Assembly (NCBI GenBank): GCA_036702965.1
Contig: DATNPZ010000001.1
Location: forward strand, 70,313 to 134,312
DNA length: 64,000 nt
Direction of reading: 5' to 3'
Origin: Drouetiella sp.
GTDB lineage: Bacteria; Cyanobacteriota; Vampirovibrionia; Obscuribacterales; Obscuribacteraceae
The translations under genes were made by a program, and so were the position numbers. Numbering within the stretch: the stretch's first letter is position 1; every line of letters starts with the position of its first letter. The notes beneath the pieces were generated by a model, which did not search any database, was not told where the DNA came from, and saw only the letters and a list, made by a program, of their open reading frames with translations. This document shows, piece by piece, positions 1,680 to 56,752 of this stretch.

Positions 1680-1905
1680 GACTGCGTTTATCCCAGAATA
1701 GTGCAGGCACGTTACCCAGCGACCAGAGCTCGACGCCAGTGGCACTAACTTGCCTACGACCAGAGTTCGAGACAGTGGCACTGACTTGCCCTACGACCAG
1801 AGTTCGGCAAAAGTGGCACTGACCAGCCCTATGACTCGAGTTAGACGACAGTGGCACTGACTTGCCCTACGACTCGAGTTCGACAACAGTGGCAATGCCT
1901 TGCCC
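1680..1905. repeat. Tandem array, ~36-38 bp unit, ~5-6 copies, seeded from the thiolase 3' coding end plus stop
   Basis: The landmark AGTGGCA occurs at 1738, 1774, 1812, 1850 and 1888. The copy at 1867-1905 is the thiolase C-terminus ([12 protein letters not shown]) plus TAG. The outermost copy (~1680-1716) is degenerate. Confidence 0.85.
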
Positions 1906-3075
1906 TACGCCGATGCACATCGTCGCCAATCCATAGCGAGAACCGCGTCGTTTCATTTCGTGAATGAGCGTGCCGAGAATGCGCGAGCCGCTGCTTCCCA
2001 GAGGATGTCCTAGCGCGATAGCGCCACCATTCACGTTTACTTTCTTGCTATCCAATCCCAGTTCTCGCATGCAGCAGAGTACCTGCACAGCAAATGCTTC
2101 GTTCAATTCGATCAAATCGAGGTCTGAAATTTTCAGACCAGCTCGCTCGACAGCCTTACGGGTAGCTGGTATCGGTCCAGTGCCCATGATTGATGGATCG
2201 ACTCCAGCGACTGCAGAGCTGACAAATCTCGCGATAGGAATAAGACCAAGCTCTTTGCACTTCTCACGCGACATGATCAATAAGGCGCTTGCACCATCAT
2301 TGATACCAGAAGAATTGCCGGCAGTAACGGAGCCATTTTCACGAAACGCGGCTTTGAGCTTCTTCAAGTCTTCCAGCTTGGTTTCTGGACGAGGCTGTTC
2401 GTCAACAGAGAACAATTCAGGCTCAGCGCTTCCTTTTTTCTTCGGCAATTGAACAGGGACTATTTCATTCTCGAACTTACCAAGACGCGCAGCCTCAGCG
2501 TATCTCATCTGACTTTCAATCGCGTACTGATCTTGATCTTCGCGAGAAATCTTGAATCGTTCGGCGACATTCTCCGCAGTTTCACCCATCGAATCAGGTG
2601 GGAACATATCGGCAAGCTTCTTGTTCACGAAGCGCCAACCAAGCGTCGAATCGACGAGTTTCTGATTGCCGCGAGCAAAAGCTGTCGTATTTTTGAGCAC
2701 TACGTATGGTGCGCGAGTCATCGACTCGACGCCGCCAGCGATGTAAATGTCGCCATCGCCAACCTGGATCGCGCGACAAGCATCGTTGACTGCCATCAAA
2801 CCCGATCCGCAAAGTCGATTCACCGTGGCGCCAGGAACAGCGGCAGGCAAACCAGCAAGCAGCAAAGCCATTCTAGCCACGTTGCGATTATCCTCGCCAG
2901 CTTGATTGGTGCAACCGAGGATAACATCTTCGATCTGACCGGGGTTGACGAAGTTACGCTTGAGTATTTCTTCGATCACAACCGAGGCTAAATCGTCCGG
3001 TCGAATATCCTTCAACGCGCCACCGTAACGTCCTATCGGCGTACGTACAGCATCAACGATCACTGCTTCTTTCAT
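1867..3075 (-). CDS. Acetyl-CoA acetyltransferase (thiolase)
   Basis: 402 aa. Thiolase signatures are NRLCGSGL (active-site Cys), [15 protein letters not shown] and CIGVGQGIA. Confidence 0.95.
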
Positions 3076-3083: not shown

Positions 3084-5054
3084 CTAATTGTATTGGCGCC
3101 GGCTAGGCGCTGCTATCCAAACTTCACTGTCACTGCTTAAAGCGCTTAGCACCGCCTCTGGTGCTGCAGAATTCGCAGCGACAGCTCTTCTAACTTCTGG
3201 TGTTTTGTCTTTTGCCAACTGCTCGAGCAGGTCACCTGGCATGTGAGGATTGCCTGCAGCAGCGATACGTACAACATCCTCATCTGATGCGAGTTTACGC
3301 AAGTCTTCAGGCGATGTAACTCGATTCATGGCGACCGTCGCACGAACCGAGGAGGAAGAATCAGACGCGAGCTTTGCAAGAGTCCCGACTGCAGTTGCTG
3401 GATTCAATGCCGCTGCCAAACGCACCGTGGCGTCATTGTCTCGTGCCAGAATATCCAGAACACCTGCGGTGGCTCTGTTGGTCTGCGCAAAAACAATTTT
3501 GAAAGCTGGGTCCTTGCAGTTTGCCAATTTTTCCAGAACTGAGTCTGCAGGCTTGTCACTGCGGGTGAGCAAGCGTTGCTGCACGTTCGAGTCGAGGTTG
3601 TCTGCGAGGGCAAGCAAAACAGCATCCGAGCTGTTCGGGTTGGAGGCAAGTGCTCGTTGCACAAGTACGGATCTGTCATTCGTCAAAGAAGAGAGAATGT
3701 TTGCATCTACTGACGGATTAGCGGCCAGGGCAAGACGAACATCTTCGTTAGTATCCTTAGCTAAGTTCGAGTAGATATTCGAACGCCAGGCTGGAGGTGT
3801 CGCATCTCTTTTGAAAGTATTGGTAGCAAGGGCGGTGCGGACTGTGGCGGCAGCGTCAGTCGATAGTTTCTTAGCCTCTGCTTCAGGTAGAGACTTGTTA
3901 GCAGCGACAGCAGTTCTCACAAGCGGCGAAACATCGCTTGCAAGTGCCGACCACATGGACGACGTTAAGGTCGGGCGAGCCGCAATCAGTTGAGACATGG
4001 CAGTCGAATTGGTCTTCAGCAGTTTAGCAACGATATCATCGGCGGTACCAACGTTGCGCGCCACGGCCTCTCGCACACGATAATCCTGATCAGCAGAAAG
4101 CTTTTCCACGACTGTGTTAGGAAGATTTTGATTTGTCGCCAGAGCCCAGCGTACTCGCATGTGTTTGTCCGCGGCGAGTTGCTCTATTAAGGAAGGATCT
4201 TCTTTTAATGCCGTCGGATTCTGAGCCACTTCCAACCGCACTTCCCATCGTGGGTCAGCAGACAGCTTCTTCAGCGCCGCAATCGGAGTAGCGCGATTCG
4301 AGGCGATGCCTTCACGCACGACTTCATTATTGTCGTGGGATAAAACTTCAAGTGCAGCAGAAGGTGTGTTTGGATTTTGCGCAACAAAAGTGCGAACTCC
4401 GAGATCACCATCCTGAGCCAATACGGCTAGAGCAGCAGGAGAAAGTTTTTGCTGTCGTGCCAAAAAAGTACGGACCAATCGATCTCCGACTTTTGACAGA
4501 CGCAAAACCTGATCCGGCGGAAGATGCGGATTGCGAGCGAGGGACAGAAGAAGATATTCAGTTTGAATTGGACCGAGTGCGAGTTTCGTCAGGACATCCG
4601 GCGAAGTCTTGGCGTTAGACGCGAGGGCTTCGACAATCTTCGGTTGCTTCGAACTGGCTAGAAAAGCCAGTGTTGCAGGGCTTACCCAGCGGGGATTGAT
4701 TAGAACGGCTTCGCTTACAAGATCGTTGTCGTCATGCGCGAGTCTATCCTTGTCCGCGTCCGCAGTATTGACGTTAGCAGCGACAGCACCGCGTATTTCG
4801 TCAGCGGAATCAGTAGAAAGCTTACTCAAAATTTGTGGTGGACAATGCGGATTCTGCGCGACAGCCAATCGAACTAGCATTGCAGGTCCAAAAAATTCTA
4901 TAGATGGAGCCGATGAACTGCCACCAAGAACATCCGCCGCAGGTGCTCCAACATTGCTGGATTCAGCCCCAAAAGCGGCTAATGGAGCCAGCACCACTGT
5001 TGATGCGACCAGGACATTTACCAATCGCAAATTCACATCTTTCTTGAACGACAT
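3084..5054 (-). CDS. Secreted HEAT / leucine-rich-repeat-variant-like repeat protein
   Basis: 656 aa. A signal-like N-terminus ([19 protein letters not shown]) is followed by roughly 20 degenerate ~30-aa repeats of the form VRxAVAxNPxxPxxxLxxLaxD. Confidence 0.6.
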
Positions 5055-5160: not shown

Positions 5161-5478
5161 ATCAAGAAGCCTGGTGGATTACTTGAATCGGAGCATGGGA
5201 TTAAGAGACCTGTTGAATTTCACGAATCAGAGCATGGGATTAAGAGTCCTTGGTGGATTTCTCGAATCAGAGCAAGGGATTAGGAGTCCTTGGTGGATTT
5301 CTCGAATCAGAGCAAGGGATTAAGAGTCCTTGGTGGATTTCTCGAATCAGAGCATGGGATTAAGAGTCCTTGGTGAATTTCTCGAATCGGAGCAAGGGAT
5401 TAAGAGGCCTGGTGAATTTCTCGAATCAGAGCAAGGGATTAAGAGGCCTGGTGGATTTCTCGAATCAGAGCAAGCAGG
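5161..5478. repeat. Tandem array, 39-40 bp unit, 8 copies, seeded from the 3' coding end plus stop of the 5439..7301 gene
   Basis: The landmark TTAAGAG/TTAGGAG occurs at 5201, 5240, 5280, 5320, 5360, 5400 and 5439, and there is a degenerate copy at 5161. The copy at 5439-5478 encodes LLALIREIHQAS plus TAA on the minus strand. Confidence 0.9.
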
Positions 5479-7301
5479 ATATCCCGATTCAATTCCTGAC
5501 TTACGTATTCGATGTACTTCACCTGCCAGTTTTCAATGTCTTTGATAATCACTGACAACGATGTCTGCGCAGACCGAGCTGCCGCCATATCGACTCCAAC
5601 TTCGCCACCAGCACCCATCGTGAAAATTCGCGCGCGACCAGAGTATCCAATACTGTCGCGCAGAGCCAGACGCAAAAACGCAAGACTGAGATTTGGGGTA
5701 ATTTTCTCTCCAACAGCGACAACAAGCTGCTGGAACTTGTCGAGAGGTCCGTGCAGATCCACTTTCGGCACCTTCAAAAGCTCGTGATGCAAAAGCAAAT
5801 TAACGGCAGTTGTCAGCTCAGATGTGGTGATATCACCCATGTACTTGATGGCAGTAGCTAGTGTCGTCAAACCATCCATTGCAGCCCAGACACGCTGTGC
5901 TCGCTCCATCTCCGCGGTGGAGACGGGCTTCTTCTCCTGTGGATCTTCCAACTGAGTTTCGAGTATCTCTTTTTCGTCAGGCACTTTCTCAAGAACAGAG
6001 TTCATTCCCTTCGGCAATTTCTTCAATACGGAATCCGTGTTGTCTTTTGCCAGCGCAGCATCGAGCAACAGCTTGTCCAGAGGCTTGCTCGTCTTACACG
6101 CTTCTTTGGCCAGATCGGCTGGTGGTGTGCGTTGAATGAATACGAAAATTCCTTCTGTCCACGACGACGCAAATTCAGTGACGGCCGAATTGCCAACAAC
6201 TTTTCCAACCTTTGCGTGCGTGATTCGACCAATCTCGAACATGGCTCGGAATTGCATATCTTTGTATTCAACAGAGAGCACGCCGGTTTCACGGTTGGTG
6301 GCAATATTTTGCAAAAGATTGGAAGGATCTGTTGTACCAAGGTGGCCGACAAGCGACTGCACTTGCGTCTCTTCGCCAGAGGTCTTGACCAACTTCACCT
6401 TTTCGGATTCAGATGATTGACCGTAGAACGAAAGATCCTGCAAAGCAATTTCGAGCTGCCGCGTGTTGAAAAATCCCTTCTTCACTGCAAGCGGACCGAT
6501 AGTGACGCGGTCTTTGACAGGAGTGGACTGGAGCTCAAACAGCAATTCGTCTAATTGATCTTGAGTCACCAGCCGTGATGCTAAAAGCAAATCCTTCAAA
6601 CTGAATGGAGTTTGATTGCGGAAGCAATTAACAAGAAACGGAACTTTGTTGAAAATCGGATAAATTGCTCGACTTTGCTCTAGTGCTTTCAACTCCTCGA
6701 TCAGCTCCTCTGCATCCATTTTCGATTGAGTTGTGAGTCGATGACTGATTGTGCTCAGTGGGGTGTAATTGTCGATAGCCGCGATAACGGCATTTCGTCG
6801 GCGAGGCTGATCCATCCCGGCTTTCAGTTTTATGCCGAGGTGAGTCAGGACTGGAACTGTTGACATCAACACCTGTTGTGACAGGTCCGTGCTCTCTTCG
6901 CTGAATCCGCCACTCTTTCCGAGGACGGATTGCACGTTGCGCGCGAGCGGTGCAGAGTAATCAAACAGCTCGGAATGATTTTCGAAAATGTGAAAGTTGA
7001 GCGAGCCCATCAAAGTATCTCGTACAATGGCGACCGCTTTATCAGACTTGAGAAAAACCAGGGCGCCCTGTACTTCAAGAAGCTGGTTTGCGAGGTGACC
7101 TGCTTCAATCAGAACTTCTGCGGGGAACAAGTATCCGCAGGCAGTCGCATCGATCAAGACCGCATCAAATAGATGCTTACCACCGGCGAGCCCTTGCAAT
7201 TCGGCGATCAAATCCGCCCCATATTTGAGAACAACAACGTTCTCCTGGGCCATCATGCGGCTTAACCGCTCGGTTATAACCTCGTTGGATTCGACTACCA
7301 T
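5439..7301 (-). CDS. DUF4388-like domain protein with receiver-like N-terminus
   Basis: The segment TGVLSVEYKDMQFRAMFEIGRITHAKVGKVVGNSAVTEFASSWTEGIFVF matches the DUF4388 pattern as I remember it. One GspE-N/MshEN-like helix pair is present (LVTQDQLDELLFELQ...GFFNTRQLEIALQ). The ORF track starts at TTG 7343, and the first ATG (MVVESNEV) is at 7301. Confidence 0.55.
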   Translation of the reverse strand: MVVESNEVITERLSRMMAQENVVVLKYGADLIAELQGLAGGKHLFDAVLIDATACGYLFPAEVLIEAGHLANQLLEVQGALVFLKSDKAVAIVRDTLMGSLNFHIFENHSELFDYSAPLARNVQSVLGKSGGFSEESTDLSQQVLMSTVPVLTHLGIKLKAGMDQPRRRNAVIAAIDNYTPLSTISHRLTTQSKMDAEELIEELKALEQSRAIYPIFNKVPFLVNCFRNQTPFSLKDLLLASRLVTQDQLDELLFELQSTPVKDRVTIGPLAVKKGFFNTRQLEIALQDLSFYGQSSESEKVKLVKTSGEETQVQSLVGHLGTTDPSNLLQNIATNRETGVLSVEYKDMQFRAMFEIGRITHAKVGKVVGNSAVTEFASSWTEGIFVFIQRTPPADLAKEACKTSKPLDKLLLDAALAKDNTDSVLKKLPKGMNSVLEKVPDEKEILETQLEDPQEKKPVSTAEMERAQRVWAAMDGLTTLATAIKYMGDITTSELTTAVNLLLHHELLKVPKVDLHGPLDKFQQLVVAVGEKITPNLSLAFLRLALRDSIGYSGRARIFTMGAGGEVGVDMAAARSAQTSLSVIIKDIENWQVKYIEYVSQELNRDILLALIREIHQAS

Positions 7302-7466
7302 CGCCCTCAGCTCAACAGCCGCCAGATTCGGACACCCCGCCAACAGGTAGTATGCCCAGGAAAGTACGATAGCAAATCCTTACGGTAAACTTCCGGTATT
7401 GGCTTTTGCGGAAGTTGCTTTGAATTGCCATAATCTAGACTTATCAGACGCAGAAAGTCGGAGCGG

Positions 7467-9242
7467 ATGTCGAATCGAATGAAAATTTCCGGTCTCCGAT
7501 TAGTCAAATCATTCTCAGTCGTAAGTTGCTGTAGTGTTCTTGGCGGGTTGTTGTGCGGCGCTGCTGTGGCGCAAAATCAAACGTGGACACAGTCGCCGAA
7601 TCCTATGCAAAACCAATATGGGATGCAGTCCTCAAATAACTCGCAAAATCAGTACGGGATGCAGTCCCCGAGTAACTCGCAAAATCGATATGGGATGCAG
7701 TCCCCGAGTAACTCGCAAAATCAACATGGGATGCAATCCCCGAATAACTCGCAAAATCAATATGGGATGCAGTCCCCAAATAACTTGCAAAATCGATATG
7801 GAATGCAGTCCCCAAACAACTCGCAAAATCAGTACGGGATGCAGTCCCCAAACAACTCGCAAAATCAGTATGGGCTGCAGTTTCCAAACAACTCGCAAAA
7901 TCAGTACGGGATGCAGTCCCCAAACAACTCGCAAAATCAATATGGGATGCAGTTCCCGAATAACTCGCAAAATCAATACGGGGTGCAGTCCCCAAATAAC
8001 TCGCAGAATCAATATGGGATGCAGTCCCCGAATAACTCGCAAAATCAATATGGGATGCAGTCCCCGAATAACTCGCAAAATCAATATGGAATGCAATCCC
8101 CGAATAGCTCACAAAATCAGTATGGAATGCAATCCCCGAATAGCTCACAAAATCAGTATGGAATGCAGTCCCCGAGTAACTCGCCCTTTAGTACTTCGAA
8201 TCTTCAGGACGAAGCAAACTTGAATCCCGAGGCTAAATCACTTTTTTCACAAGCTGTTCGACTCTTAAAGACCAACAAAGCTTATCAAGCCAGAGATCTA
8301 CTTGAACGCGCTTCGATGCTCGCTCCCAAGTCAGCGGAAATACACTGCAATCTTGGTTTGGCTTATCAAAATTCCGGCAATATGCAAAAAGCGTTGACTG
8401 AATTCAAAACAGCGCTGACACTCAATCCCAGCATGCCCGAAGCGAAACTGAACCTAGCTGGATGTTACCAGAGCATGGGTGCAAACAAAGATGCGATTAC
8501 ATGGTATTCAGCTTATTTACTGGATAGAGACGCAAACGATCCCCAGCGAAAGCAAATAGACGATATCATCACGGCGCTGAAGCAAACGAATCCAAAGACC
8601 GGCGGAGATGCAAATGCGGGCGACTATTTTACTAGTGTCACCGCCGACGGTGCATTTCGATGGACAAAAGAAAAGTTGCCAATCAAAGTTTACGTTCAAA
8701 ACGCGATTGTAAACTCTGCCGGGAATCCCGTTTCAGGATTTAAACAATCGTTTCGGACTTCCCTTCTCAGCGCATTCAAAGATTGGTGCGAAGCTTCCAA
8801 CAATCGCATAGCCTACGTTGTAGTTCCTGATAAAGAGCACGCTGATATTTACTGCACCTGGACGTCAGACCCGATAGAAGTAACTGATAATGGCACTTCC
8901 AGCGAGCGCGGAGCTGCGAAAGTAATAGTTAAAGGAAATAACATCGAGCGCGCTACTTTAAAAATCCTGACTCGCCCAGTACTCGAAGATGGCTTGCTGA
9001 GCGAGGATGATATGACCAAAGCATGTTTGCACGAAGTTGGACACGTTTTGGGACTTCAGGGTCACTCAACGAATAACCACGACGTTATGTTCTTCACGGT
9101 AGATACAGCAACCGTTTGGCCGGTTTTATCGAGAAGGGACAAATCAACGATTGCCAAGCTGTATAAAGACTATCCAGTCATGACAACGATGTCAGCAAAG
9201 AAGAAGGGTTCGACGAACGCGCGCGGAGCCCACCAGCGCTGA
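7467..9242 (+). CDS. Secreted Q/N-repeat - TPR - metzincin (matrixin-like) zinc metalloprotease
   Basis: 591 aa. The signal peptide ends ...GAAVA-Q. It is followed by 16 copies of QNQYGMQSPNNS, then TPR repeats (AEIHCNLGLAYQNSGNMQKALTEFKTALTLNP), then a C-terminal HEVGHVLGLQGH (HExxHxxGxxH) motif with a Met-turn candidate VMF. Confidence 0.75.
   Translation: MSNRMKISGLRLVKSFSVVSCCSVLGGLLCGAAVAQNQTWTQSPNPMQNQYGMQSSNNSQNQYGMQSPSNSQNRYGMQSPSNSQNQHGMQSPNNSQNQYGMQSPNNLQNRYGMQSPNNSQNQYGMQSPNNSQNQYGLQFPNNSQNQYGMQSPNNSQNQYGMQFPNNSQNQYGVQSPNNSQNQYGMQSPNNSQNQYGMQSPNNSQNQYGMQSPNSSQNQYGMQSPNSSQNQYGMQSPSNSPFSTSNLQDEANLNPEAKSLFSQAVRLLKTNKAYQARDLLERASMLAPKSAEIHCNLGLAYQNSGNMQKALTEFKTALTLNPSMPEAKLNLAGCYQSMGANKDAITWYSAYLLDRDANDPQRKQIDDIITALKQTNPKTGGDANAGDYFTSVTADGAFRWTKEKLPIKVYVQNAIVNSAGNPVSGFKQSFRTSLLSAFKDWCEASNNRIAYVVVPDKEHADIYCTWTSDPIEVTDNGTSSERGAAKVIVKGNNIERATLKILTRPVLEDGLLSEDDMTKACLHEVGHVLGLQGHSTNNHDVMFFTVDTATVWPVLSRRDKSTIAKLYKDYPVMTTMSAKKKGSTNARGAHQR
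7572..8183 (+). repeat. In-frame 36-nt coding tandem repeat (16 full copies plus 1 degenerate)
   Basis: The nucleotide unit caaaatcaatatgggatgcagtccccgaataactcg is repeated head-to-tail and encodes QNQYGMQSPNNS. All three frames on both strands give long spurious ORFs here. Confidence 0.95.
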
Positions 9243-18050: not shown

Positions 18051-18236
18051 TCGACATACCTACGTTTCAAAGGTCACTGGTGCTCTTGATCGCAAACACT
18101 GTTACAACTATTGCGGAGAGATGATCGTAACCGACAGCTGAAAATATTCCTTAGAACCGCACGAACACAGCAATAACTGACAAGCATGTCAATTGGTTTA
18201 TGCTGATCACAAGAGCAATAATGGCGAGGAATTATC

Positions 18237-18722
18237 ATGCAAAAGGTAACACCGTTTTTGTGGTTTGATGAACAAGCAGAAGAAGCTGTCAACTTCTACA
18301 CGTCGATATTCAAGAATTCAAAAATCAAGCAAGTATCACGCTACGACAGAGACAGTGCTAAAGCTTCGGGGCGCGCGGAAGGCTCGGTCATGGTCATAAC
18401 TTTCGAACTGGATGGTCAGGACTACATGGCTTTAAATGGCGGTCCCGTGTTCAAATTCAATCCAGCGATCTCGTTTATGATCAACTGCGACACACAAGAA
18501 GAAATCGACAGAATGTGGGACGAGCTCAGCGATGGAGGCAGCATTCAAGGCTGCGGTTGGGTGACGGACAAGTTCGGAATTTCATGGCAAGTGGTGCCAA
18601 AAGTTTTCGGAACAATGATGAAAGATCCGGATGCTGCAAAAACACGTCGCGTCATGGCATCACTTTTGCAGATGCAAAAATTGGATATCGAGGCACTCGA
18701 AAAAGCATTCGCAGGCGTTTAA
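18237..18722 (+). CDS. VOC-superfamily protein, PhnB / 3-demethylubiquinone methyltransferase-like domain
   Basis: 161 aa. MQKVTPFLWFDEQAEEAVNFYTSIF...KFGISWQVVP is characteristic of this family. A GAGGAA RBS lies upstream. Confidence 0.85.
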   Translation: MQKVTPFLWFDEQAEEAVNFYTSIFKNSKIKQVSRYDRDSAKASGRAEGSVMVITFELDGQDYMALNGGPVFKFNPAISFMINCDTQEEIDRMWDELSDGGSIQGCGWVTDKFGISWQVVPKVFGTMMKDPDAAKTRRVMASLLQMQKLDIEALEKAFAGV

Positions 18723-18857
18723 TCACGCTTGTCGAGGGACAGCGCCTCGCAGGCGTTTAATCACGCTTGCCGAGAGACAGCACTCGCAGGCGTTTAATCA
18801 CGCTTGCCGAGGGACAGCACTCGCAGGCTTTTAATCACGCTTGCCGAGGGACAGAAT
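18709..18857. repeat. Tandem array, 37-38 bp unit, 4 copies, seeded from the 3' end plus stop of the VOC gene
   Basis: TCGCAGGCGTTTAA (TCGCAGGCTTTTAA in the last copy) starts at 18709, 18747, 18784 and 18821. The first copy contains the real FAGV codons plus the TAA at 18720-18722. Confidence 0.9.
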
Positions 18858-18936
18858 GCGCGTCCAGACAGAACCGTATTTAGTGCCACCGTATTAAGTG
18901 GCACAATCGCGAGCGTTCAGTTTCATAAACATAAAT

Positions 18937-19008
18937 CTGGGGTGCAAGGATTCGAACCTCGGAATGGCTGGATCAGAACCAGCTGCCTTACCACTTGGCG
19001 ACACCCCA
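18937..19008 (-). tRNA. tRNA-Gln (anticodon CUG)
   Basis: The minus-strand sequence is TGGGGTG TC GCCAAGTGGTAAGGC A GCTGG TTCTGAT CCAGC CATTC CGAGG TTCGAAT CCTTG CACCCCA G. It folds as a cloverleaf with a U1-A72 pair and G73 discriminator, as in bacterial tRNA-Gln. No CCA is encoded. Confidence 0.9.
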
Positions 19009-19024
19009 ATGTGCTTGTCTTAGC

Positions 19025-19053
19025 ATACTAGAAATCTTCCGAAGAAGTGTCAA
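19025..19053 (-). promoter_or_regulatory. Sigma70-like promoter for tRNA-Gln
   Basis: The minus strand reads TTGACA, a 17-nt spacer, then TAGTAT. The -10 element ends 16 nt upstream of the tRNA 5' end. Confidence 0.6.
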
Positions 19054-19072
19054 TAAGCTCAACGCAGTAAAG

Positions 19073-20170
19073 TTACTTTTGCGGCGGGAGCGCCACCACC
19101 AATCTCAACCAGCGCTTCATATCCGCTACCTCGTCACTTCTGTCAGTTGCGACGAGCAACTTCTCGAAATTAATCAACGTTCGTTGTGCCATGGGATGAA
19201 AAGGCTCATTCGCCCCGCTTCTGTAAGCAATATCCAGAAATTGCTCGCACAGGTCAAATTCTCCGCAATTGAAAAGCAACTCGCCTACTTCGTTGAATCT
19301 TTCTATCTCGGAAAGAGGCACAGCTGCTGCGCGATATCGAGCCAGATTGAGAAATTCCAGGCATGCGGATGTACCATGTGCTGGCTCGCCTTGCTTGAAG
19401 TAGTAAACGGCGGCGGCGGATAACATCGCGTATTTGTATTCGAACTGCCGAGAGATATCCGTGCTTTGAGCGACCCGAGAGTAGAATTCCTCGGTCATCT
19501 GAAAATAGGTTTGCGCCTCCAATAAATTGATGGGCTCGGAGTGCGTTTTCAAATACAACATAGAAAAAACAACAAACCAGCAGACGCTTGGACTGAAGCG
19601 ATCTGGAGTGTTGAGAACCGCTTGAACACATGGTTCAAGCAGCGTCGAAGCTTCATCGTAACGATGCAATCTAGACAGCGCGTTGGCAAGATTAGCTGTA
19701 ATCACGAATACAGAATCCAGTGATTTCGTTGCACCACCTCGATCCTGCACTTTTAGAGCTCGGCGAAAAAAATGTTCCGCTCTGTCGAAATTTGCAAGAG
19801 ATAACTCCCAGGTTCCGAGATTAGACAAACAAATAGCGTGAAATCTGTTGTTACGAAAAATACTGTACAAGGGCAGAAGCGACTGTTGCAAAAGAATTCG
19901 TCCACGCAAATTTTCTGGTTCGAATTTCTCGTAGGTAGCCACAACCATATGGATGAAGTAAGGGACAACAAACCATGAATAAATCGTCGCACAACTGAAA
20001 AGCAGACCCGCTGCGACCGGTGAATGCCCGATTGCACAGGCGATACCAAGCAATACCAGAGCAACCGGGATGGACACCATAACCACACAGATTATGATGC
20101 TTGGAATGGCCGCACGAGCAGCTTTAGAGCTTCCAACTGGAACGAGTGATGAATTGTCGGACTCGCTCAT
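19073..20170 (-). CDS. Membrane-anchored TPR repeat protein
   Basis: Two to three N-terminal TM helices (IIICVVMVSIPVALVLLGIACAIG...) are followed by TPR-like helical repeats. The start was moved to the ATG at 20170 (MSESDNSS). The ORF track extends to 20245. Confidence 0.5.
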   Translation of the reverse strand: MSESDNSSLVPVGSSKAARAAIPSIIICVVMVSIPVALVLLGIACAIGHSPVAAGLLFSCATIYSWFVVPYFIHMVVATYEKFEPENLRGRILLQQSLLPLYSIFRNNRFHAICLSNLGTWELSLANFDRAEHFFRRALKVQDRGGATKSLDSVFVITANLANALSRLHRYDEASTLLEPCVQAVLNTPDRFSPSVCWFVVFSMLYLKTHSEPINLLEAQTYFQMTEEFYSRVAQSTDISRQFEYKYAMLSAAAVYYFKQGEPAHGTSACLEFLNLARYRAAAVPLSEIERFNEVGELLFNCGEFDLCEQFLDIAYRSGANEPFHPMAQRTLINFEKLLVATDRSDEVADMKRWLRLVVALPPQK

Positions 20171-36975: not shown

Positions 36976-37548
36976 TTGCGCATTCTCGGAATAGACCCTG
37001 GCACAGCCACAGTCGGATATGGCGTAGTGCAATCGTTTGGTGGCGGAGGCAAATCCTCGCTGCGTTATGTCACCTCTGGCATCATAAAGACAACGAATCG
37101 AGACACCACTGGCGACAGGCTCTCTATTATACGAGCAGATATGCTCGAACTTATCAGTCTATATAATCCTGATGTAGTTTCAGTCGAAGCAATTTTCTTT
37201 TTCAAAAATGCCAAAACTTTGGTGCCGGTTGCGCAAGCTCGAGGCGTAATTCTCGAAGCTGCCGCCAGCAGGAAGCTTCCGACATTCGAATATACGCCGA
37301 TGCAAGTCAAGCTGCATTTAACCGGATACGGTCGAGCCGAAAAATTGAGCGTGCAAACGATGATCGCTGAGCTCTTAAATTTGCCAGAAATAATCAAGCC
37401 CGACGATGCATCTGACGCGCTTGCCATCGCAGTATGTCATGCACGTATGTGTCCGATCCCTTATGTTGCAGAGGCTCCGGCAAAAGTGGACGAAGGACCA
37501 ATCAATGTCGCCGAAGCACCAATCAATGTCGCAGAAGCACCAATCTGA
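36976..37548 (+). CDS. ruvC: Crossover junction endodeoxyribonuclease RuvC with repeat-containing C-terminal tail
   Basis: (M)RILGIDPGTATVGYGVV and DASDALAIAVCHA are present. The start is a TTG at 36976. The tail ends GPINVAEAPINVAEAPI, encoded by a 21-nt tandem repeat. Confidence 0.9.
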   Translation: MRILGIDPGTATVGYGVVQSFGGGGKSSLRYVTSGIIKTTNRDTTGDRLSIIRADMLELISLYNPDVVSVEAIFFFKNAKTLVPVAQARGVILEAAASRKLPTFEYTPMQVKLHLTGYGRAEKLSVQTMIAELLNLPEIIKPDDASDALAIAVCHARMCPIPYVAEAPAKVDEGPINVAEAPINVAEAPI

Positions 37549-43027: not shown

Positions 43028-44530
43028 CTAGTGCTTGTTGCCCTGTTGGTCTGTTGCTGACGCGCCGGTTTCTTGCAACTTTTTGTCTGATGGTTTGATT
43101 TCGCTTGGCTCGTTCGACTCATTGTTCTTGTCATGCGGACGACGCGATTCCAGGAATTTCACGACATCCTCGAGTTCTTTCGGCGAAATATTTCCAGCAT
43201 ATGCAGGCATGTTCACGCCACCATTGACGATTCGCACCGTTAACTGGTCGTGCGTGAGACGCTCTCCGACGTCAGTCAGGTCTGGACCACGTCTGCCACC
43301 ATGTCCCGAGATTGCGTGGCAGAACAGACAACCACGATCGTTGAAGACTTTCGCACCAGCTGCAATTGGACCTGTAGTTGCCCCGATCGCTGCAGGTGGA
43401 ACAGGCTTCGCGGCAAATTTCGGTGTCCAGTATTCGTTGATACCTTCTTGCCATAACGCAAGAACAGAGCCAACTACGACAACAACGATCGCTACAGCCC
43501 ACGGACGTCTGCGCGCACTACGCTCACCCGAGTTGGACAGGAACGGTGGCGTCAACATCCCAACTACTAGAAATACAGGGAAGAGAAGAATGAACCAGTC
43601 TTCGATTCCAGCAGGCACCAGCGCCAGCAACGCAAAGTACCAGGTCAGATACCAATCCGGTTTCGGCTCAGCATTGATCAATGATGGGTCTGGAGGATTT
43701 TCGATCATTGGCGGACCGAAATACAGAGCGCAAGCGCAAATTCCCAAAACTACGATGACACTAAATACGGCATCACGCCAAGCTGCATCCGGCCAGAATG
43801 GAGCACCATCTGTCTTCAGAAGCTCGTGATACTCTTCACGATAAGTGTCCTTGTTTACCGGTTTTCCAGGTGTTGGAGGTTCAGAAATTCCATGATGAAG
43901 CACAAGCCACACATGCAATCCGATCAAGCCGATTAGTAAAACAGGGAAGATGAAAACATGCATCGCATAAAAATGGCTCAGCGACGCAGAACTGACGTTG
44001 TCACCGGAACACAGAACGCGAACCAAGATAGGACCGACAAACGGCGCGCGCAGAGCCTGCTCAGCACCCACCGCTACAGTCCACACGGCAGTCTGGTCCC
44101 AGCGCAATACCTGTCCTGTGAATGCAATCGATACGCTCAGGAACAAGAGGAAGACGCCAGTGATCCAATTCAACTCACGCGGAAACTTGAATGCACCATA
44201 AAGATAAGTTTGAATCGCGTGACAGCCAACGAAAATGATCATCGCCGAAGCGCCAAAGTAGTGGGTTGCACGCAACCACGCTCCAAACGGCACTTTCTCA
44301 GTTATCCATTTGACAGATTCCCAGGCTTCACCACCACTGGGAACATACATTGTGGAAAGCGCCACACCACTGGCTAGTTGCACGATGAACGCCGTCATGA
44401 TCGCTGTGCCGAAGACATACGCCCAGGTGGATTTTCTCGGCACAGGATGCAACATCACGTGCATGAACGGCTTAACCAAGCCTGTTCTATCCTGCAACCA
44501 ATCGAGAGCTGTGTCTAATACCTTTTCCAT
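43028..44530 (-). CDS. Cytochrome b (bc1/b6f-type, b plus subunit-IV-like helices) fused to a C-terminal mono-haem cytochrome c domain
   Basis: 500 aa. The N-terminal cytochrome b pattern is WAYVFGTAIM...ATHYFGASAMIIFVGCHAIQ...FYAMHVFIFP. The C-terminal segment GCLFCHAISG...NMPAY carries a CxxCH motif. Confidence 0.85.
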   Translation of the reverse strand: MEKVLDTALDWLQDRTGLVKPFMHVMLHPVPRKSTWAYVFGTAIMTAFIVQLASGVALSTMYVPSGGEAWESVKWITEKVPFGAWLRATHYFGASAMIIFVGCHAIQTYLYGAFKFPRELNWITGVFLLFLSVSIAFTGQVLRWDQTAVWTVAVGAEQALRAPFVGPILVRVLCSGDNVSSASLSHFYAMHVFIFPVLLIGLIGLHVWLVLHHGISEPPTPGKPVNKDTYREEYHELLKTDGAPFWPDAAWRDAVFSVIVVLGICACALYFGPPMIENPPDPSLINAEPKPDWYLTWYFALLALVPAGIEDWFILLFPVFLVVGMLTPPFLSNSGERSARRRPWAVAIVVVVVGSVLALWQEGINEYWTPKFAAKPVPPAAIGATTGPIAAGAKVFNDRGCLFCHAISGHGGRRGPDLTDVGERLTHDQLTVRIVNGGVNMPAYAGNISPKELEDVVKFLESRRPHDKNNESNEPSEIKPSDKKLQETGASATDQQGNKH

Positions 44531-44544
44531 TATCAGTTCTTCTT

Positions 44545-45084
44545 CTAACCTTCGGCCAGCACCGGACCAACTTTGATTTCAACTTGACCGTTCGCGATGC
44601 GGGTCGGGTATTTATGCAACGGACGCGGAGGCGGACCACCTGCGACGTGACCGTCACTGTAGTAAACGCCACCATGACACGGACACATAAAGAGTTCTGC
44701 GCCTGCTTCCCAACGAACCGGGCAGCCCAAGTGCGTGCAGTTCACGGCGAAAGCTTCGAAGTTACCATCTTCCATACGACGCAACCAGGCGCTTCTCTTA
44801 GCGCACACGCCATCCCAGGGAGTTCCCGTCGTGTCGGTGAAGACGATGTCTACGGTCTTTCCAGGCTCATATTTATCGACTGGACCAACTTTTATCCAAT
44901 CTTCTTGTCGCGGAACGAGGAAATATCCAAAGGCAAATCCAATACCTGGAATCGCCACAACAAGCCCGATAAAGGCTGCGGAAACAGCAGCGACAACCTT
45001 GAAAAATTCGTCGCGACTGACAAGAACCCGAGACCAATCTACCGAGATTTTCGGTTCTTCTTTTTGTGGATCACTGCAACACAT
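44545..45084 (-). CDS. Rieske [2Fe-2S] protein
   Basis: 179 aa with an N-terminal TM helix, and the motifs CTHLGCPV and CPCHGGVY. Confidence 0.9.
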   Translation of the reverse strand: MCCSDPQKEEPKISVDWSRVLVSRDEFFKVVAAVSAAFIGLVVAIPGIGFAFGYFLVPRQEDWIKVGPVDKYEPGKTVDIVFTDTTGTPWDGVCAKRSAWLRRMEDGNFEAFAVNCTHLGCPVRWEAGAELFMCPCHGGVYYSDGHVAGGPPPRPLHKYPTRIANGQVEIKVGPVLAEG

Positions 45085-45475
45085 CTTTCCTCAAATCCTC
45101 AATCCAACCTGCTGCTCCCAACAGGAAAAGGAATAATCCAGCCACTGACAAAATCCAGTGGGTAACGACACCAAATGCGATACCAGTAACACCGAGTGCC
45201 AGAGTTGCCGGCCAAATTGTCGGCGGCGGAATCTTGATCAACTCCAGATGCTCGCCCGGAATCCACTCTGTCTCGAACTTATCTGGGCTTATGGCTACTG
45301 ACTTTGCAGGCTCTGGCTTGGACGGAAGCATCTCGTCTTTGACAGCATCTACTTTGGCCGGCAACAAACGCTCGCTCGATTGCTCAGTTATTTCAGCCGC
45401 AGAAGTCTTTTTCGATTCAGCTTCTTGTGCTAACACAGGCTCTTTTTCCTGGTCAGAATCACGCTGTTCGGACAT
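45071..45475 (-). CDS. Small two-TM membrane protein within the respiratory operon
   Basis: 134 aa. An acidic N-terminal half is followed by two TM helices (WPATLALGVTGIAFGVV, ILSVAGLFLFLLGAAGW). Both ends overlap the neighbouring genes, which is consistent with co-translation. Confidence 0.55.
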   Translation of the reverse strand: MSEQRDSDQEKEPVLAQEAESKKTSAAEITEQSSERLLPAKVDAVKDEMLPSKPEPAKSVAISPDKFETEWIPGEHLELIKIPPPTIWPATLALGVTGIAFGVVTHWILSVAGLFLFLLGAAGWIEDLRKDVLQ

Positions 45476-46274
45476 CGTTGCCTCCCCCGTCTGTCTCTCT
45501 CAGCCACTCGATCATTACTGCCATCAATGCCCAGAAGAAATTGAGCGTACAGATAACCCACATGATCGCACCGCCGAGTTTCTGATCCTCCAGATGTGTC
45601 AAACCCCATTGCTCGCGGATAAGCGGCAAGAGATTGTGATGATCGTCTGGGTTTGCGTAAGCCGCATAAAAAGGAAATTCTGCAATGGTGTAGACAATTC
45701 CCAAAATCGAGGCGAGGAACATCGCCACAGTCAAATAGATAACCGCCGGTAGTGGCTTCAAACGACCTTCTGGAATCGGTTTGAATACCGGCCACCACAA
45801 CATCGTACCGGACACCATAAAGGTGAGATGCTCGATGATATGGACAGTTTCGTTCTCCAAAGTGATGTTGTAAATCGGTGGAACATGCCAGATCAACATC
45901 ACGATCGTCGCTATCGTCAGCGCAAATACTGGATTACCTAAAAATCGCTCTGCTGCTCGAACGCCAGGAATTTTCATCCAGCTCTGCACCATCTCTTCAG
46001 GTAGAGCAGCAACTAACAGAACCGGTCCAATGAACTCGAGGATCATGTGTTGCGCCATATGAGCGCTGAAAAGGTACTCGTCACCAAGCTCATCCAGCGG
46101 CGACATCAAACCGATCCACAAGATCGCGATTCCTGTAAGGAAAGAGAGCGTCTTCCAGTTGAACTTCAATTTGGTGCCCCAGAGGTAGCCAACCGTCAAT
46201 GCGACCAATCCTACTGCAATGGATGGAACGGGCTCCCAGTGGGACTTGAGCATTGCCATCAATTCTGGTGTCAT
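45459..46274 (-). CDS. ctaG: Cytochrome c oxidase assembly factor CtaG (caa3-type)
   Basis: It is a multi-TM protein with SPLDELGDEYLFSAHMAQHMILEFIGPVLLVAALP, as in Caa3_CtaG proteins. The ATG at 46274 overlaps the subunit III stop (ATGA). Confidence 0.7.
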   Translation of the reverse strand: MTPELMAMLKSHWEPVPSIAVGLVALTVGYLWGTKLKFNWKTLSFLTGIAILWIGLMSPLDELGDEYLFSAHMAQHMILEFIGPVLLVAALPEEMVQSWMKIPGVRAAERFLGNPVFALTIATIVMLIWHVPPIYNITLENETVHIIEHLTFMVSGTMLWWPVFKPIPEGRLKPLPAVIYLTVAMFLASILGIVYTIAEFPFYAAYANPDDHHNLLPLIREQWGLTHLEDQKLGGAIMWVICTLNFFWALMAVMIEWLRETDGGGNDVRTA

Positions 46275-46885
46275 TGAACAAATCTCCATAAATACACAAC
46301 GGAGAAAACTGCTACCCAGACAACGTCAACAAAGTGCCAGTACAAGGACACGCATGTCAAGCCGGCTTCAGTAATCTCGTGCTCTTTCCCACGTGCCATC
46401 ACCCACAGTGCGACACAGAGAAGAATCAATCCAACAATGACGTGGAATCCGTGGAATCCAGTCAAAGTGAAAAATGTCGTGCCGAATAGATCTCGGCTGA
46501 TTGTCAGGTTTTCCTTGATCAACTCAGTGTACTCAAGCGCCTGACCAGCGATAAAGACAGCTCCCAATCCAATCGTCACAAGCATCCAGACAATGGCCAT
46601 GCCACTATTTTTTGCGTGTGCTTTTTCTGCCAACCAGAGCGTAAAGCTGCTGGAGAAAAGGGCAATCGAGAACATGCCTGTCTTGAAGACATCTAGATGC
46701 CACGCGGCCATGGAACCGGTTCCATATTGATTGTGGAAGTTGACGTAAGCCAAAATCAACAAAAGGAAGAACATCGATTCAGAGCCGATGAAAAGCAACA
46801 TCCCCATGATGTTTCTGTTCATTTTCAAGTTGGAATCAAGTGGGTGCGGTGGGGGTGGAGCCACTGCAGTCGAATGATTATGCAT
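46271..46885 (-). CDS. ctaE: Cytochrome c oxidase subunit III
   Basis: FFTLTGFHGFHVIVGLILL and WHFVDVVWV motifs are present. The ATG at 46885 (MHNHS) overlaps the subunit I stop by 8 nt. The ORF track extends to 46951. Confidence 0.85.
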   Translation of the reverse strand: MHNHSTAVAPPPPHPLDSNLKMNRNIMGMLLFIGSESMFFLLLILAYVNFHNQYGTGSMAAWHLDVFKTGMFSIALFSSSFTLWLAEKAHAKNSGMAIVWMLVTIGLGAVFIAGQALEYTELIKENLTISRDLFGTTFFTLTGFHGFHVIVGLILLCVALWVMARGKEHEITEAGLTCVSLYWHFVDVVWVAVFSVVYLWRFVQ

Positions 46886-48551
46886 GGTAGTTTTCTCCGT
46901 CTCCGCCACTGCCGAATTGCAAATCCCACAACGGTCTTCGGCTGCGTACAACCGGCACGCGCTCGAAGTTTTCAGCTATTGGCGGCGATTCGCAAAGCCA
47001 TTCCAAAGTCCATGCGTTCCAGGGATTTGGACCAGCAATCTGCCCGTGATAAAAACTCCAGATCAAGTTGTAGACGAAAAGCAAAATTGAAAAAACAAGG
47101 ATAAAAGAGCAGCATGACGAGAAGAAATTCAACTCAGCCCAGCCTGGCATTCCCAGCGGATAAGTGTAAACACGTCGTGGCATTCCCAAAATTCCAAGAA
47201 TATGGAGAACGAAGAAAGTGCCATTGAATCCGACAGTCATCAACCAGAACTGCCATTTGCCCAGGGTCTCGGACATCATTCTGCCCGTGGCTTTCGGATA
47301 CCAGTAATAGACACCGGCAATAAGTGAGAACAACATGCCGCCGACAAGAACATAATGGAAGTGTGCAACGACGAAGTAGCTGTCTGTGAGCTGCCAGTCC
47401 AGCGGAATGACCGCAAACATAACGCCGCTCAATCCACCGATTGTGAACTGGATCAAAAACGCCATCGAATGCAACATGGCTGTCGTGAACTTCAGTTTGC
47501 CACCCCACATGGTGGCAAGCCACGACCAGACTTTGATCCCAGTCGGTACTGCAATCAACAAGCTGGTTACAGCGAAGATGTAGAGCGGAGCGAATCCAAG
47601 ACCCGTCGCAAACATATGGTGGACCCAGACGCCGAAGCTCAAAAAGGTGATAGCTACGGTGGATGCGGCCATCACGCCGGCTCCGAAAAGCAGCTTACGA
47701 GAGAAGACAGGGATGATTTCAGAAATTGCCCCCCACCCTGGAAGAATCAAGATGTAGACTTCAGGATGACCGAAGAACCAGAAGAAGTGCTGCCACAGAA
47801 GCGGTGAACCACCAACGGTTGCATCGAAGAAGTGAGTGTTCAAAATTCGGTCGAAGAGGATCATCACAAGCGCAGCGTTCAGTGCAGGCAGTGAGAAGAT
47901 GACGAGGAAGGCATCCATCAAGATCATCCAGACGAAAAGCGGAACACGCTTCAAAGTCATGCCAGGAGCGCGCATCGTCAAAATTGTGACGACCAGATTG
48001 ACCCCTGTTGCCACCGAACCAATACCGGTGACAAAAAGGCTGAGTGCCCAGTAATTCTGTCCACTATTAAAGAGATATCCCTTTTCGCTCAAAGGCGGAT
48101 AGGCGAACCATCCCGCTGCCGGCGCTCCACCAGCTAAGAAGCTGAAGAACATCATGATTGCGCCGAAAACGTAAACCCAGTATCCAAATGAGTTTAAACG
48201 CGGAAACGCCATATCGCGAGCGCCGATCATCAATGGAGTAAGGTAGACAGCGAAGCCGAAAAGTAAAGGCATCCCGACGAAGAAAACCATAGTGGTACCG
48301 TGGACGGTGAACACCTGGTTGTAAGCTTCTTGCGAAATGACGTGGTTCATCGGGAACATCAACTGAATACGAATCAGCAGTCCAAGAAACGCACCAACCA
48401 CGAGAAAAGCAAACGCCGAAAGGATATAAAGGATACCGAGTTGCTTGTGGTCGATCGATGTCAACCAGCTCAGGATGCCCTGATACTCAGGTACATCACG
48501 TAACCAATTCACTGGTTTGTGCGAGTGTGGATGCAACGCACTGTCGGTCAT
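46878..48551 (-). CDS. ctaD: Cytochrome c oxidase subunit I
   Basis: 557 aa. HGTTMVFF, WFFGHPEVYILILP and HHMF...VAHFHYV are haem-copper oxidase signatures. Confidence 0.97.
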   Translation of the reverse strand: MTDSALHPHSHKPVNWLRDVPEYQGILSWLTSIDHKQLGILYILSAFAFLVVGAFLGLLIRIQLMFPMNHVISQEAYNQVFTVHGTTMVFFVGMPLLFGFAVYLTPLMIGARDMAFPRLNSFGYWVYVFGAIMMFFSFLAGGAPAAGWFAYPPLSEKGYLFNSGQNYWALSLFVTGIGSVATGVNLVVTILTMRAPGMTLKRVPLFVWMILMDAFLVIFSLPALNAALVMILFDRILNTHFFDATVGGSPLLWQHFFWFFGHPEVYILILPGWGAISEIIPVFSRKLLFGAGVMAASTVAITFLSFGVWVHHMFATGLGFAPLYIFAVTSLLIAVPTGIKVWSWLATMWGGKLKFTTAMLHSMAFLIQFTIGGLSGVMFAVIPLDWQLTDSYFVVAHFHYVLVGGMLFSLIAGVYYWYPKATGRMMSETLGKWQFWLMTVGFNGTFFVLHILGILGMPRRVYTYPLGMPGWAELNFFSSCCSFILVFSILLFVYNLIWSFYHGQIAGPNPWNAWTLEWLCESPPIAENFERVPVVRSRRPLWDLQFGSGGDGENYHA

Positions 48552-49504
48552 TTCAAGTTCTCCAGATAAACAGCGATGTCATGCGCTTCTTCGTTGGTCA
48601 AGCGCATATTAGGCATGTTGCAGCCTGGTTTAAATTGTTGTGGATTCTGCATCCACTTCGCGAGATTGTCAGTGGTGTTCTCCAACACTCCGGCACCGAG
48701 AGTTCCTCTCGTTGCGATGTGAGTCAAATCAGGACCAATCCGCGCGGTCGCTTCGGCATCACCAGCGATGCGATGACACTGCACGCAAGTAGCAGAGTTG
48801 AAGAGCTCTTTGCCTTTTACTGCAGCCGGATCGGTTGATTGCTGCGGCAACGCAGCTTGCTGTTTGATCCAATCATCGAATTCAGGTTTGGATACGACAT
48901 GGGCAATGATTCTCATCAATCCGTGCTGCGCGCCGCAATACTCAGAGCACGTACCAAGGAAGAGTCCTGTTTTAGTTGGATGGACAAACATATTTGTTGG
49001 ATGTCCGGGAATCGCATCCATCTTCTGTCCGAACGCCACAACCCAGAAGGAGTGCACTACGTCGGCGGCGCGAATTTCAAAGAGAGCGTTCTCACCGACT
49101 GGTAAATAAAGTTCATTCGCTGTCGTGACACCGTATTTGGGGTATTGATACTCCCACCACCACTGGTGCCCTACAACAATCACGTCAGGCTTTTTAGTTC
49201 CCACTGCTGGATTGACCATGATCATGGTGACCGCAGTCAGCACGCCAAGAACAGTGACGATAAGCATTGGTATCGCCGTCCAAATTATCTCGAGCCTGGT
49301 GTTGCCGTGAATCTGTTTCGGTTCGCTGCCATCATCGTTTTCAGGCGTTCTGAACTTCGCAATGATTGCCACCATCAATCCTGTGACAACGAATGCGATC
49401 ACAAGACAGATGCCGAGCGTGAACCAGTGCAAGTCGACAAGCAGCTTGTTCTGCGCAGTTGCGACATTGAATATGCTAGTAAAATCCGCGTTCTTTAAAT
49501 CCAT
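48548..49504 (-). CDS. ctaC: Cytochrome c oxidase subunit II with fused cytochrome c domain (caa3-type)
   Basis: The CuA site is HSFWV...CSEYCGAQHGLM. A C-terminal CVQCH haem c motif is present. Confidence 0.92.
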   Translation of the reverse strand: MDLKNADFTSIFNVATAQNKLLVDLHWFTLGICLVIAFVVTGLMVAIIAKFRTPENDDGSEPKQIHGNTRLEIIWTAIPMLIVTVLGVLTAVTMIMVNPAVGTKKPDVIVVGHQWWWEYQYPKYGVTTANELYLPVGENALFEIRAADVVHSFWVVAFGQKMDAIPGHPTNMFVHPTKTGLFLGTCSEYCGAQHGLMRIIAHVVSKPEFDDWIKQQAALPQQSTDPAAVKGKELFNSATCVQCHRIAGDAEATARIGPDLTHIATRGTLGAGVLENTTDNLAKWMQNPQQFKPGCNMPNMRLTNEEAHDIAVYLENLK

Positions 49505-56211: not shown

Positions 56212-56315
56212 CCGACCGCACATCCAATTGGGAGCACCCGGGTTTGTCAACGGTGAAAGCGTTGATCCGCCCGGTTTCTTCTTCGATTCGCTTAGCTGAT
56301 TGCCGGGTCCGCACT

Positions 56316-56686
56316 GTCCATCCAGCTCTTCCAAATCCTCACGCTCTCAGGATATCCAGCTCTCTCAATCCTTAATGCCTCTGGATATCCAGCTCTCTCA
56401 AGCCTTACTGCCTCTGGATATCCGGCTCTTTCAGAATCCTCACGCTCTCAGGATATCCAGGTCTTCCAAATCCCCACGCTCTCAGGACATCCAGCTCTTC
56501 CAAATCCTCACGTTCTCAGGATATCCAGCTCTTTCAATCCTTACGGCCTCAGGATATCCAGCTCTTTCAATCCTTACGGACTCAGGATATCCAGCTCTTT
56601 CAATCCTTACGGACTCTGGATATCCGGCTCTTTCAGAATCCTCACGCTCTCAGGATATCCAGCTCTTCAAAATCCTCACTGTCCTC
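56316..56686. repeat. Intergenic tandem array, 33-35 bp unit, 11 copies
   Basis: The unit is GGATATCCAGCTCTTTCAATCCTTACGGACTCA with variants. Every unit starts with the 8-bp palindrome GGATATCC (GGACATCC in one copy, and degenerate GTCCATCC in the first). There are no unique spacers. Confidence 0.9.
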
Positions 56687-56752
56687 GGACATGTGAAAAC
56701 GGCGAACTCTTCCCTGACCAGCGGGTGAGTCGTACCGCCCGGCTCCACACCG

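Follow-up and report, generated by a model that had tools for sequence, protein, structure and literature searches.

A stop-spanning tandem array at the 3′ end of a VOC-family gene and its probable origin by local duplication

At the end of a VOC / PhnB-like gene in the stretch of 64,000 nt of Drouetiella DNA analysed here (the window), the stop codon and its surroundings occur four times in succession, and an earlier note on this DNA had drawn each copy as a hairpin with the TAA exposed in the loop. The question that the locus raises is whether this arrangement is a structure with a bearing on expression of the gene, an element that came from elsewhere, or a product of duplication on the spot. 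The reading favoured here, with a probability of about 0.7, is that the array is a local VNTR-like minisatellite, generated by slippage-type tandem duplication across the stop and tolerated since its first copy keeps the gene intact.

The array and the gene end that it copies

The array is made up of four head-to-tail units of 38, 37, 37 and 37 nt starting at 18709, 18747, 18784 and 18821, and the fourfold repetition reported earlier at these positions was recovered by TRF, by repeat finding and by a mismatch search alike. TRF places it at 18704-18854 with a period of 37, 4.1 copies and 92% matches. A search of the window with the consensus, allowing up to 3 mismatches, gave four matches with 2, 1, 0 and 3 mismatches where 0 are expected (100 shuffles), and repeat finding gave unit spacings of 38, 37 and 37 nt, with the units abutting and no spacer between them. 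(A CRISPR array was considered and rejected because the units abut and there are no unique spacers.) Pairwise identity among the units is 84–97%; the inner two copies are closest to each other and the edge copies are the most diverged, which is as expected under unequal exchange. The features of the locus are as follows.

18237-18722, plus strand: VOC / PhnB-like gene of 161 aa (PF06983, E 9e-47), its C-terminus and length as in the family
18704-18712, plus strand: 5′ flanking partial repeat AGCATTCGC, read from the sequence; it resembles the unit junction AGCACTCGC and the 3′ flank AGAATGCGC
18709-18746, plus strand: unit 1, the native copy, TCGCAGGCGTTTAATCACGCTTGTCGAGGGACAGCGCC, 38 nt; arms 18709-18718 and 18725-18735 (bulge at 18732), loop 18719-18724, TAA 18720-18722
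18747-18783, plus strand: unit 2, 37 nt; TAA 18758-18760
18784-18820, plus strand: unit 3, 37 nt, identical to the consensus; TAA 18795-18797, in frame with the real stop
18821-18857, plus strand: unit 4, 37 nt, degenerate; TAA at 18832, a G-to-T change at 18829 that weakens the stem, 3′ end merging into unique sequence
18853-18861, plus strand: 3′ flanking partial repeat AGAATGCGC, read from the sequence; 7/9 identical to 18704-18712
18873-18904, no strand assigned: 15-nt direct repeat in two copies (18873-18902) with a perfect 7-bp hairpin GTGCCAC-CGTATTAA-GTGGCAC (18883-18904), between the array and tRNA-Gln
18936-19009, minus strand: tRNA-Gln(CTG), convergent to the VOC gene, a structured-RNA (Rfam) match

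Unit 1 contains the last four codons of the VOC gene (about 14 nt) together with its TAA at 18720-18722. Two further statements of the earlier note hold: the third TAA is in frame, 75 nt past the first, and the array ends about 80 nt (79–82 nt) before the convergent tRNA-Gln(CTG). No in-frame stop lies between the first TAA and the third.

The protein itself bears on which came first, the gene end or the repeat. It ends ...LEKAFAGV at 161 aa (FAGV-TAA), and 80 of the 110 listed VOC homologues shorter than 180 aa are 160–161 aa long and end ...AY/F-x-G-x; the family's C-terminal pattern is ...L-x-x-A-Y/F-x-G-x, with LQLAFAGK and LKKAYAGQ as examples among the listed homologues. The ending at 161 aa fits that of the family, and copy 1 is therefore native coding sequence. 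By this comparison the gene end is older than the repeat, copies 2–4 being duplicates of copy 1 plus about 20 nt of 3′ flank. An independent short-read contig from the same locus (L001) reads through copy 1 and the GCGCC junction into copy 2, where it carries the GAGA variant peculiar to that copy, and then ends inside the array; with these features reproduced, the repeat is not the artefact of one assembly. No second assembly crosses the VOC array, and it counts against the minisatellite reading that copy-number polymorphism could not be shown for it.

With about the right size (37 nt), an imperfectly palindromic sequence and an extragenic position, the unit might be taken for a mobile or dispersed repeat of the REP, MITE or MIRU-like kind, inserted where the VOC gene ends. 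The earlier note had allowed for such dispersal, and the unit proved to be confined to its array. At up to 3 mismatches the window holds only the four matches of the array itself, exact-pattern scans gave 0 matches in 185,579 GTDB species genomes and 0 in JGI metagenome contigs, and other fetched loci, apart from L001 of the same locus, gave none. In addition, copy 1 encodes the family-typical C-terminus, so that it was the gene that gave rise to the unit. Arrival of a mobile repeat is already largely refuted and is extremely improbable. The regular spacing of the repeats beside a tRNA gene could also bring to mind DNA-binding sites (iteron-like or regulatory) or the remnant attachment site of an element at tRNA-Gln. 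However, the window carries no duplicate of the tRNA-Gln 3′ end, no integrase or replication gene is nearby, and relatives keep the same gene order without the array, and this alternative too is very improbable; an island attachment site at tRNA-Gln in particular was rejected, with neither a duplicate of the tRNA 3′ end nor an integrase among the neighbours.

The relatives in question were reached through the aldo-keto reductase beside the VOC gene, whose homologues on the JGI contigs L156 and L157, both syntenic with the window, are 80% identical to it. Reductase, VOC gene (63% identical), tRNA-Gln (1 mismatch), a TPR gene, a cation-efflux gene and a TPR-matrixin gene are shared, and the two contigs additionally carry an AraC gene and an endonuclease/exonuclease/phosphatase-family gene (Pfam Exo_endo_phos). 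Neither has the array, a homologous unit or a stop-spanning hairpin at its VOC stop. From that stop to the 3′ end of the convergent tRNA-Gln there are 16 nt in L156 and 27 nt in L157, compared with 213 nt in the window; the syntenic relatives manage with so short a spacer without an array, and the 213-nt spacer is therefore a derived expansion. The VOC-tRNA spacer of L157 holds an 11-nt duplication (two copies) where L156 has a single copy, and a 14-nt unit with a TAG in it runs across the AraC stop, twice in L156 (about 4775-4800) and about nine times in L157 (2036-2155).

The nearest homologue of the VOC protein (P0002, 73% identical) is encoded on contig L002, which has different neighbours and is not syntenic. 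There an array at 4479-4548, with the 25-nt unit AAGTAAACGCTTGCGATTAACAAGC in at least 2.8 copies, starts at the last sense codon of the VOC gene (AAG), just before TAA, and the contig ends inside it. (A second array on L002, of 30 nt in four copies at 3694-3810, lies upstream of the 25-nt one.) Among 51 more distant metagenome VOC loci, 47 of them with a family-type C-terminus, there was no stop array with a period of 14 nt or more, short-read contigs being biased against arrays; 5 of the 51 have repeats of 10–12 nt in two to three copies across the stop. With no array of period 14 nt or more in these distant loci, arrays as a general background at VOC genes were rejected.

The course of events proposed for the minisatellite is simple. 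A segment of ~37 nt, in which the final 14 coding nt of VOC are followed by the TAA and ~20 nt of 3′ flank, would have been duplicated in tandem. The likely cause would be slipped-strand mispairing or unequal exchange between the flanking direct repeats AGCATTCGC and AGAATGCGC, which, from their resemblance, are candidate microhomology for the first slippage event, and the array would then have grown to four copies. As judged from its anatomy, it would have persisted since copy 1 keeps the full reading frame and the stop; copy 1 retains both complete, so the VOC protein is unchanged. With a duplicated segment that spans the stop, every copy brings its own TAA. The array comes from the 3′ end of the gene itself, is absent in the syntenic relatives, is unique to its locus and is one of many alike in anatomy.

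Arrays elsewhere in the window and their placement at stop codons

In a census of the window that took in periods from 15 nt upwards and 2.5 or more copies, ten arrays were counted; four of them span a stop and run downstream, each with an unrelated unit. They are given here with a fifth from the same genome.

1720-1909, minus strand: thiolase-end array, 38 nt, 5.1 copies; gene 1867-3075; unit 1 is the last 13 codons, and the stop is created at the start of copy 2
5172-5474, minus strand: DUF4388-end array, 40 nt, 7.7 copies; gene 5439-7343; begins in the last 33 coding nt, with TAA in every unit
18704-18854, plus strand: VOC array, 37 nt, 4.1 copies; begins 16 nt before TAA
59383-59556, minus strand: array of 26 nt, 6.8 copies; gene 59532-61202; begins in the last 22 coding nt before TGA, and most units hold TGA
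L153, 10495-10706: array of 51 nt, 4.2 copies, in the same genome, ~6 kb to the right of the window; the final 47 nt of a gene lie within it

The four sisters of the VOC array (38, 40, 26 and 51 nt) each start 22–44 coding nt before the stop (25–47 including the stop) and run downstream. In the thiolase gene unit 1 is conserved domain sequence, with a Pfam Thiolase_C alignment that reaches residue 399 of 402. Two other assemblies or sequencing runs have this array without a single base difference, a point against the minisatellite reading; the three assemblies are probably from one population. (In GTDB this thiolase gene has no close relative, its best match being 59–60% identical.) The short-read contigs L153 and L155 both start inside the 26-nt array. 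Compared across genomes, the VOC array is absent in the syntenic relatives, the AraC array has two copies as against about nine, and the thiolase array is the same in three assemblies; look-ups for the left-edge protein and the TPR neighbour, seeking copy-number polymorphism, found nothing on record.

Arrays inside genes and arrays across stops differ in period. Within genes the periods are 36, 15, 18, 21, 45 and 30, all six divisible by 3, and seven of seven are so if a 33-nt array at 56320, in ORF 56300-56728, is counted; that ORF has no Pfam match and is probably just the array read in frame. The stop-spanning arrays have periods of 38, 40, 37, 26, 14, 25 and 51, of which one in seven (51) is divisible by 3. 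Out-of-frame duplications survive only where the protein stays intact, which confines them to intergenic DNA and the 3′ ends of genes; intergenic constraint is lowest over the first few tens of nt past a stop.

Several arrays and gene ends deserve mention in their own right. A 36-nt repeat of 17 copies at 7570-8184, encoding QNQYGMQSPNNS, lies in frame in a protein with TPR and matrixin domains (7467-9242). In RuvC (36976-37548) an in-frame 21-nt repeat of 2.6 copies at 37491-37545 abuts the stop; it lies beyond the Pfam RuvC domain (residues 3-155 of 190) and so forms a repeat-made C-terminal tail. Downstream of a gene for an HtrA-like protease (55198-56211) are the 33-nt array, of 10.3 copies (56320-56667), and a 16/32-nt array (56788-56870). 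Between closely related strains (L148 vs L145-147; L149 vs L150) called lengths differ for cytochrome b-c (534 vs 513 aa), AlaRS (913 vs 898 aa) and NAD kinase (312 vs 300 aa), and these differences between orthologs may reflect differences in repeat number or start site at gene ends. The minus strand at 43028-50439 bears a respiratory operon with genes of both complex III and complex IV (Rieske protein, cytochrome b-c fusion, CtaG, COX3, COX1, COX2, UbiA). Its COX1 is 89–90% identical to proteins of MAGs, of which the nearest with a name (89%) is labelled 'Oculatellaceae cyanobacterium', and the fusion of complexes III and IV in one operon hints that the organism may be a non-photosynthetic relative.

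For comparison, 1.4 Mb of loci from 80 other bacteria served as controls and were analysed like the window, and the clade set amounts to ~185 kb. Per Mb there are 94 non-genic arrays in the window, 66 in the clade and 9 in the controls (p ~1e-4 and 7e-6). The lineage is rich in tandem repeats, at 7–10 times the control density, and the VOC array is one instance of a process unusually active in it.

Whether that process is also aimed at stops is a separate matter. A directed or hotspot mechanism that seeds arrays at stop codons in this lineage can be envisaged, for example replication slippage provoked by the uncoupling of translation from transcription at gene ends, or reverse transcription or template switching on mRNA 3′ ends. 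In the window four of the six non-genic arrays span a stop and none spans a start, where a null of uniform seeding gives 0.10–0.17 per array (p ~0.001–0.01, in a test that is post hoc, ignores promoter constraint and deals with small numbers and crude ORF calls); the excess over that null may point beyond neutral drift with a selection filter. In the clade 7/12 span a stop, and three of the five 'intergenic' arrays are within 11 nt of one. Borg elements have the same habit (PMC9879509). However, 3–4 of the 13 non-genic arrays in the controls likewise span a stop, and the 7/12 of the clade is not significantly higher (Fisher p 0.11–0.24). Moreover, a selection filter alone already predicts a 3′ bias, given the constraint on promoters and 5′ UTRs and its absence just past the stop. 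No reverse-transcriptase gene is among the 33 ORFs of the window scanned against Pfam. We conclude that the 3′ anchoring of arrays is at least largely what the selection filter predicts, and regard a seeding hotspot as decidedly unlikely. If the 3′ bias should be mutational, the birth of tandem repeats would be linked to the end of gene expression units.

Folding of the units

Units were folded with ViennaRNA and scored against shuffled sequence. The hairpin with TAA in its loop, as the earlier note had it, can be drawn for every unit. For units 1–3 it has a 10-bp stem with one bulge and a 6-nt loop, UUAAUC, at −12.2 kcal/mol, and z is −1.64, −2.79 and −2.40 for the three, with shuffle means of −6.4 to −8.7 kcal/mol. 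For unit 4, in which a stem G has become U, the corresponding values are −7.8 kcal/mol and −0.64, which is no better than shuffles. Greater stability than shuffled controls, a check that the earlier note had itself named, is thus borne out for three of the four units, marginally or somewhat (z −1.6 to −2.8), and fails for the fourth.

Taken singly, then, units do form the TAA-loop hairpin; in tandem they prefer another pairing. Complementarity between the two arms also lets the 3′ arm of each unit pair with the 5′ arm of its downstream neighbour, and this inter-unit register, whose loop is GGACAGCA, attains −16.4 kcal/mol and beats the within-unit hairpin. The whole 246-nt region has a z of −4.1, yet the frequency of its MFE structure is 0.0002 and the centroid retains one helix in the array, the fold of the whole array being, as modelled, ill-defined. 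The TAA is unpaired in both registers, which means that 'displaying the TAA' does not describe a definite feature of the fold. The functional reading implied by the earlier proposal, of a structure built to display a stop codon, is not supported: the array favours inter-unit pairing, and the three sister arrays that were folded, as well as the syntenic relatives, do without the hairpin.

Three of the four sister arrays were folded, those of 38, 40 and 26 nt, and gave no significant hairpin. Since these stop arrays lack hairpins, repetition of the stop follows from the position of the duplicated segment and not from a hairpin. At the level of single units only the two VOC arrays, of the window and of L002, fold better than shuffles (z −2.1 and −2.9), and units of the 38, 40, 33 and 26 nt arrays are no better than shuffles in any rotation or on either strand (z −0.7 or higher). 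Hairpins as a general property of arrays in this genome were rejected on the latter result. Common to the VOC genes of the window and L002 is an inverted repeat, TCGCAGG...CTTGCGA, across the stop; as it is present in two VOC genes that are not syntenic, some selection on structure is possible. From this likeness we infer that the hairpin was probably single-copy in the common ancestor of the two genes and was multiplied later; it would recur in the array because the single-copy ancestor already had an inverted repeat across the stop.

Known classes of structured RNA give no explanation of the array. Rfam, searched at E up to 1 for the region and at the gathering threshold for the whole window, returned tRNA only, and a known RNA family was rejected. 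An intrinsic terminator, as a GC-rich hairpin followed by a U tract, was rejected too; there are 0 terminator-like sites within 18100-19200 and no U tract after the hairpin. The sole helix outside the array kept in the centroid fold is the GTGCCAC/GTGGCAC hairpin, again with no U tract, which on the modelled fold may be a bidirectional 3′ stem-loop.

These results also bear on the possibility that the array is a selected 3′-UTR element, either protecting VOC mRNA from 3′ exonucleases or acting as a terminator without U tract, or an insulator, between the convergent VOC and tRNA-Gln genes. Three of four units at −12.2 kcal/mol with z down to −2.8, the z of −4.1 for the 246-nt region and conservation of the stop-spanning inverted repeat in L002 are all in its favour, and an ancestral spacer of 16–27 nt between convergent genes could have favoured a longer one. 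However, the fold is ambiguous, with its MFE frequency of 0.0002 and a more stable inter-unit register, the stem has lost a pair in unit 4, and a U tract is lacking. The three sister arrays that were folded (38, 40 and 26 nt) lack structure, the relatives manage without the array, and the location of 4/5 of the inter-copy differences at unpaired positions is not significant (p ~0.14). Selection for a role in the 3′ UTR is accordingly considered unlikely. On the minisatellite reading, the array would lengthen a formerly tiny spacer between VOC and tRNA-Gln and, on the predicted folds, add three stem-loops to the VOC 3′ UTR, and any effect of the longer spacer or the extra stem-loops, be it on stability or termination of the VOC mRNA or in relieving interference with the convergent tRNA gene, would most likely be a by-product.

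Comparison with known repeat systems

The array itself is an ordinary local minisatellite, and the VOC protein is unaffected by it; what is out of the ordinary is the context, a bacterial chromosome on which tandem arrays, each with a unit of its own, are about ten times as dense as usual. There is also a practical side, as short-read assemblies break off in such arrays at the ends of genes, and spurious ORFs or C-terminal extensions can result from them.

Bacterial VNTRs and MIRUs offer the first comparison. The VOC array has the head-to-tail copies, free of spacers and made from local sequence, that mark a VNTR or minisatellite, and the change in copy number of the AraC array between related genomes (two as against about nine) is VNTR-like as well. 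The MIRUs of mycobacteria, reportedly described by Supply et al. in 1997, form a single sequence family with about 40 scattered loci. Their place is between the cistrons of operons, where they overlap the stop of the upstream one and the start of the next. Tandem units of tens of nt at gene ends, which can overlap the upstream stop, are common to these systems and to the arrays described here, but here each array has its own unit, and the VOC array overlaps a stop only and faces a convergent tRNA gene.

REP/BIME sequences of enterobacteria occur as hundreds of dispersed copies, with alternating orientation in clusters that act as 3′ protectors of mRNA or as terminators. Like them, the VOC unit is an imperfect palindrome of ~35 nt after a stop, and stem-loops at the 3′ end could stabilise the upstream mRNA. 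Unlike them, it is unique to one locus and strictly head-to-tail, with all four copies direct. In Beggiatoaceae the heptamer TAACTGA forms direct repeats, one 7-nt motif being used genome-wide and mostly upstream of start codons (PMC4679880). These too are intergenic direct repeats with stop codons that sometimes overlap the stop of the upstream gene, whereas the 37-nt unit is confined to one locus.

The closest described analogue of the VOC array and its sisters is the tandem direct repeats of Borgs (Schoelmerich et al. 2023, PMC9879509). These are head-to-tail and occur throughout one genome, each locus having a unit of its own; in ORFs their periods are always divisible by three and in intergenic arrays mostly not; partial repeats occur at their flanks, hairpins are formed by some of the units, and close relatives have different arrays or none (PMC9879509). 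The present genome resembles Borgs in the pervasiveness of arrays (94 vs 9 per Mb), in unrelated, locus-unique units, in the frame rule (6/6 vs 1/7), and likewise in partial repeats at array flanks, hairpins in some units and differences between close relatives. It differs in that the host is a bacterial chromosome of a cyanobacteria-related lineage and not an archaeal element, in that copies are imperfect (83–92% matches) where those of Borgs are perfect, and in base composition. Borg repeats are A-rich, and a bias of that kind is absent here, A making up 18–27% of the arrays as against 25% of coding sequence.

It is conceivable, though doubtful, that this thinly sampled lineage carries a Borg-like repeat-making process that preferentially seeds stops, through a hotspot at the end of translation or transcription or through a dedicated enzyme, with the VOC array as one of its products. 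What the comparison does suggest, with the same frame rule and the same habit of starting inside gene ends on both sides, is that this habit is not peculiar to Borgs, and the habit that the two share may simply reflect where out-of-frame duplications are tolerated.
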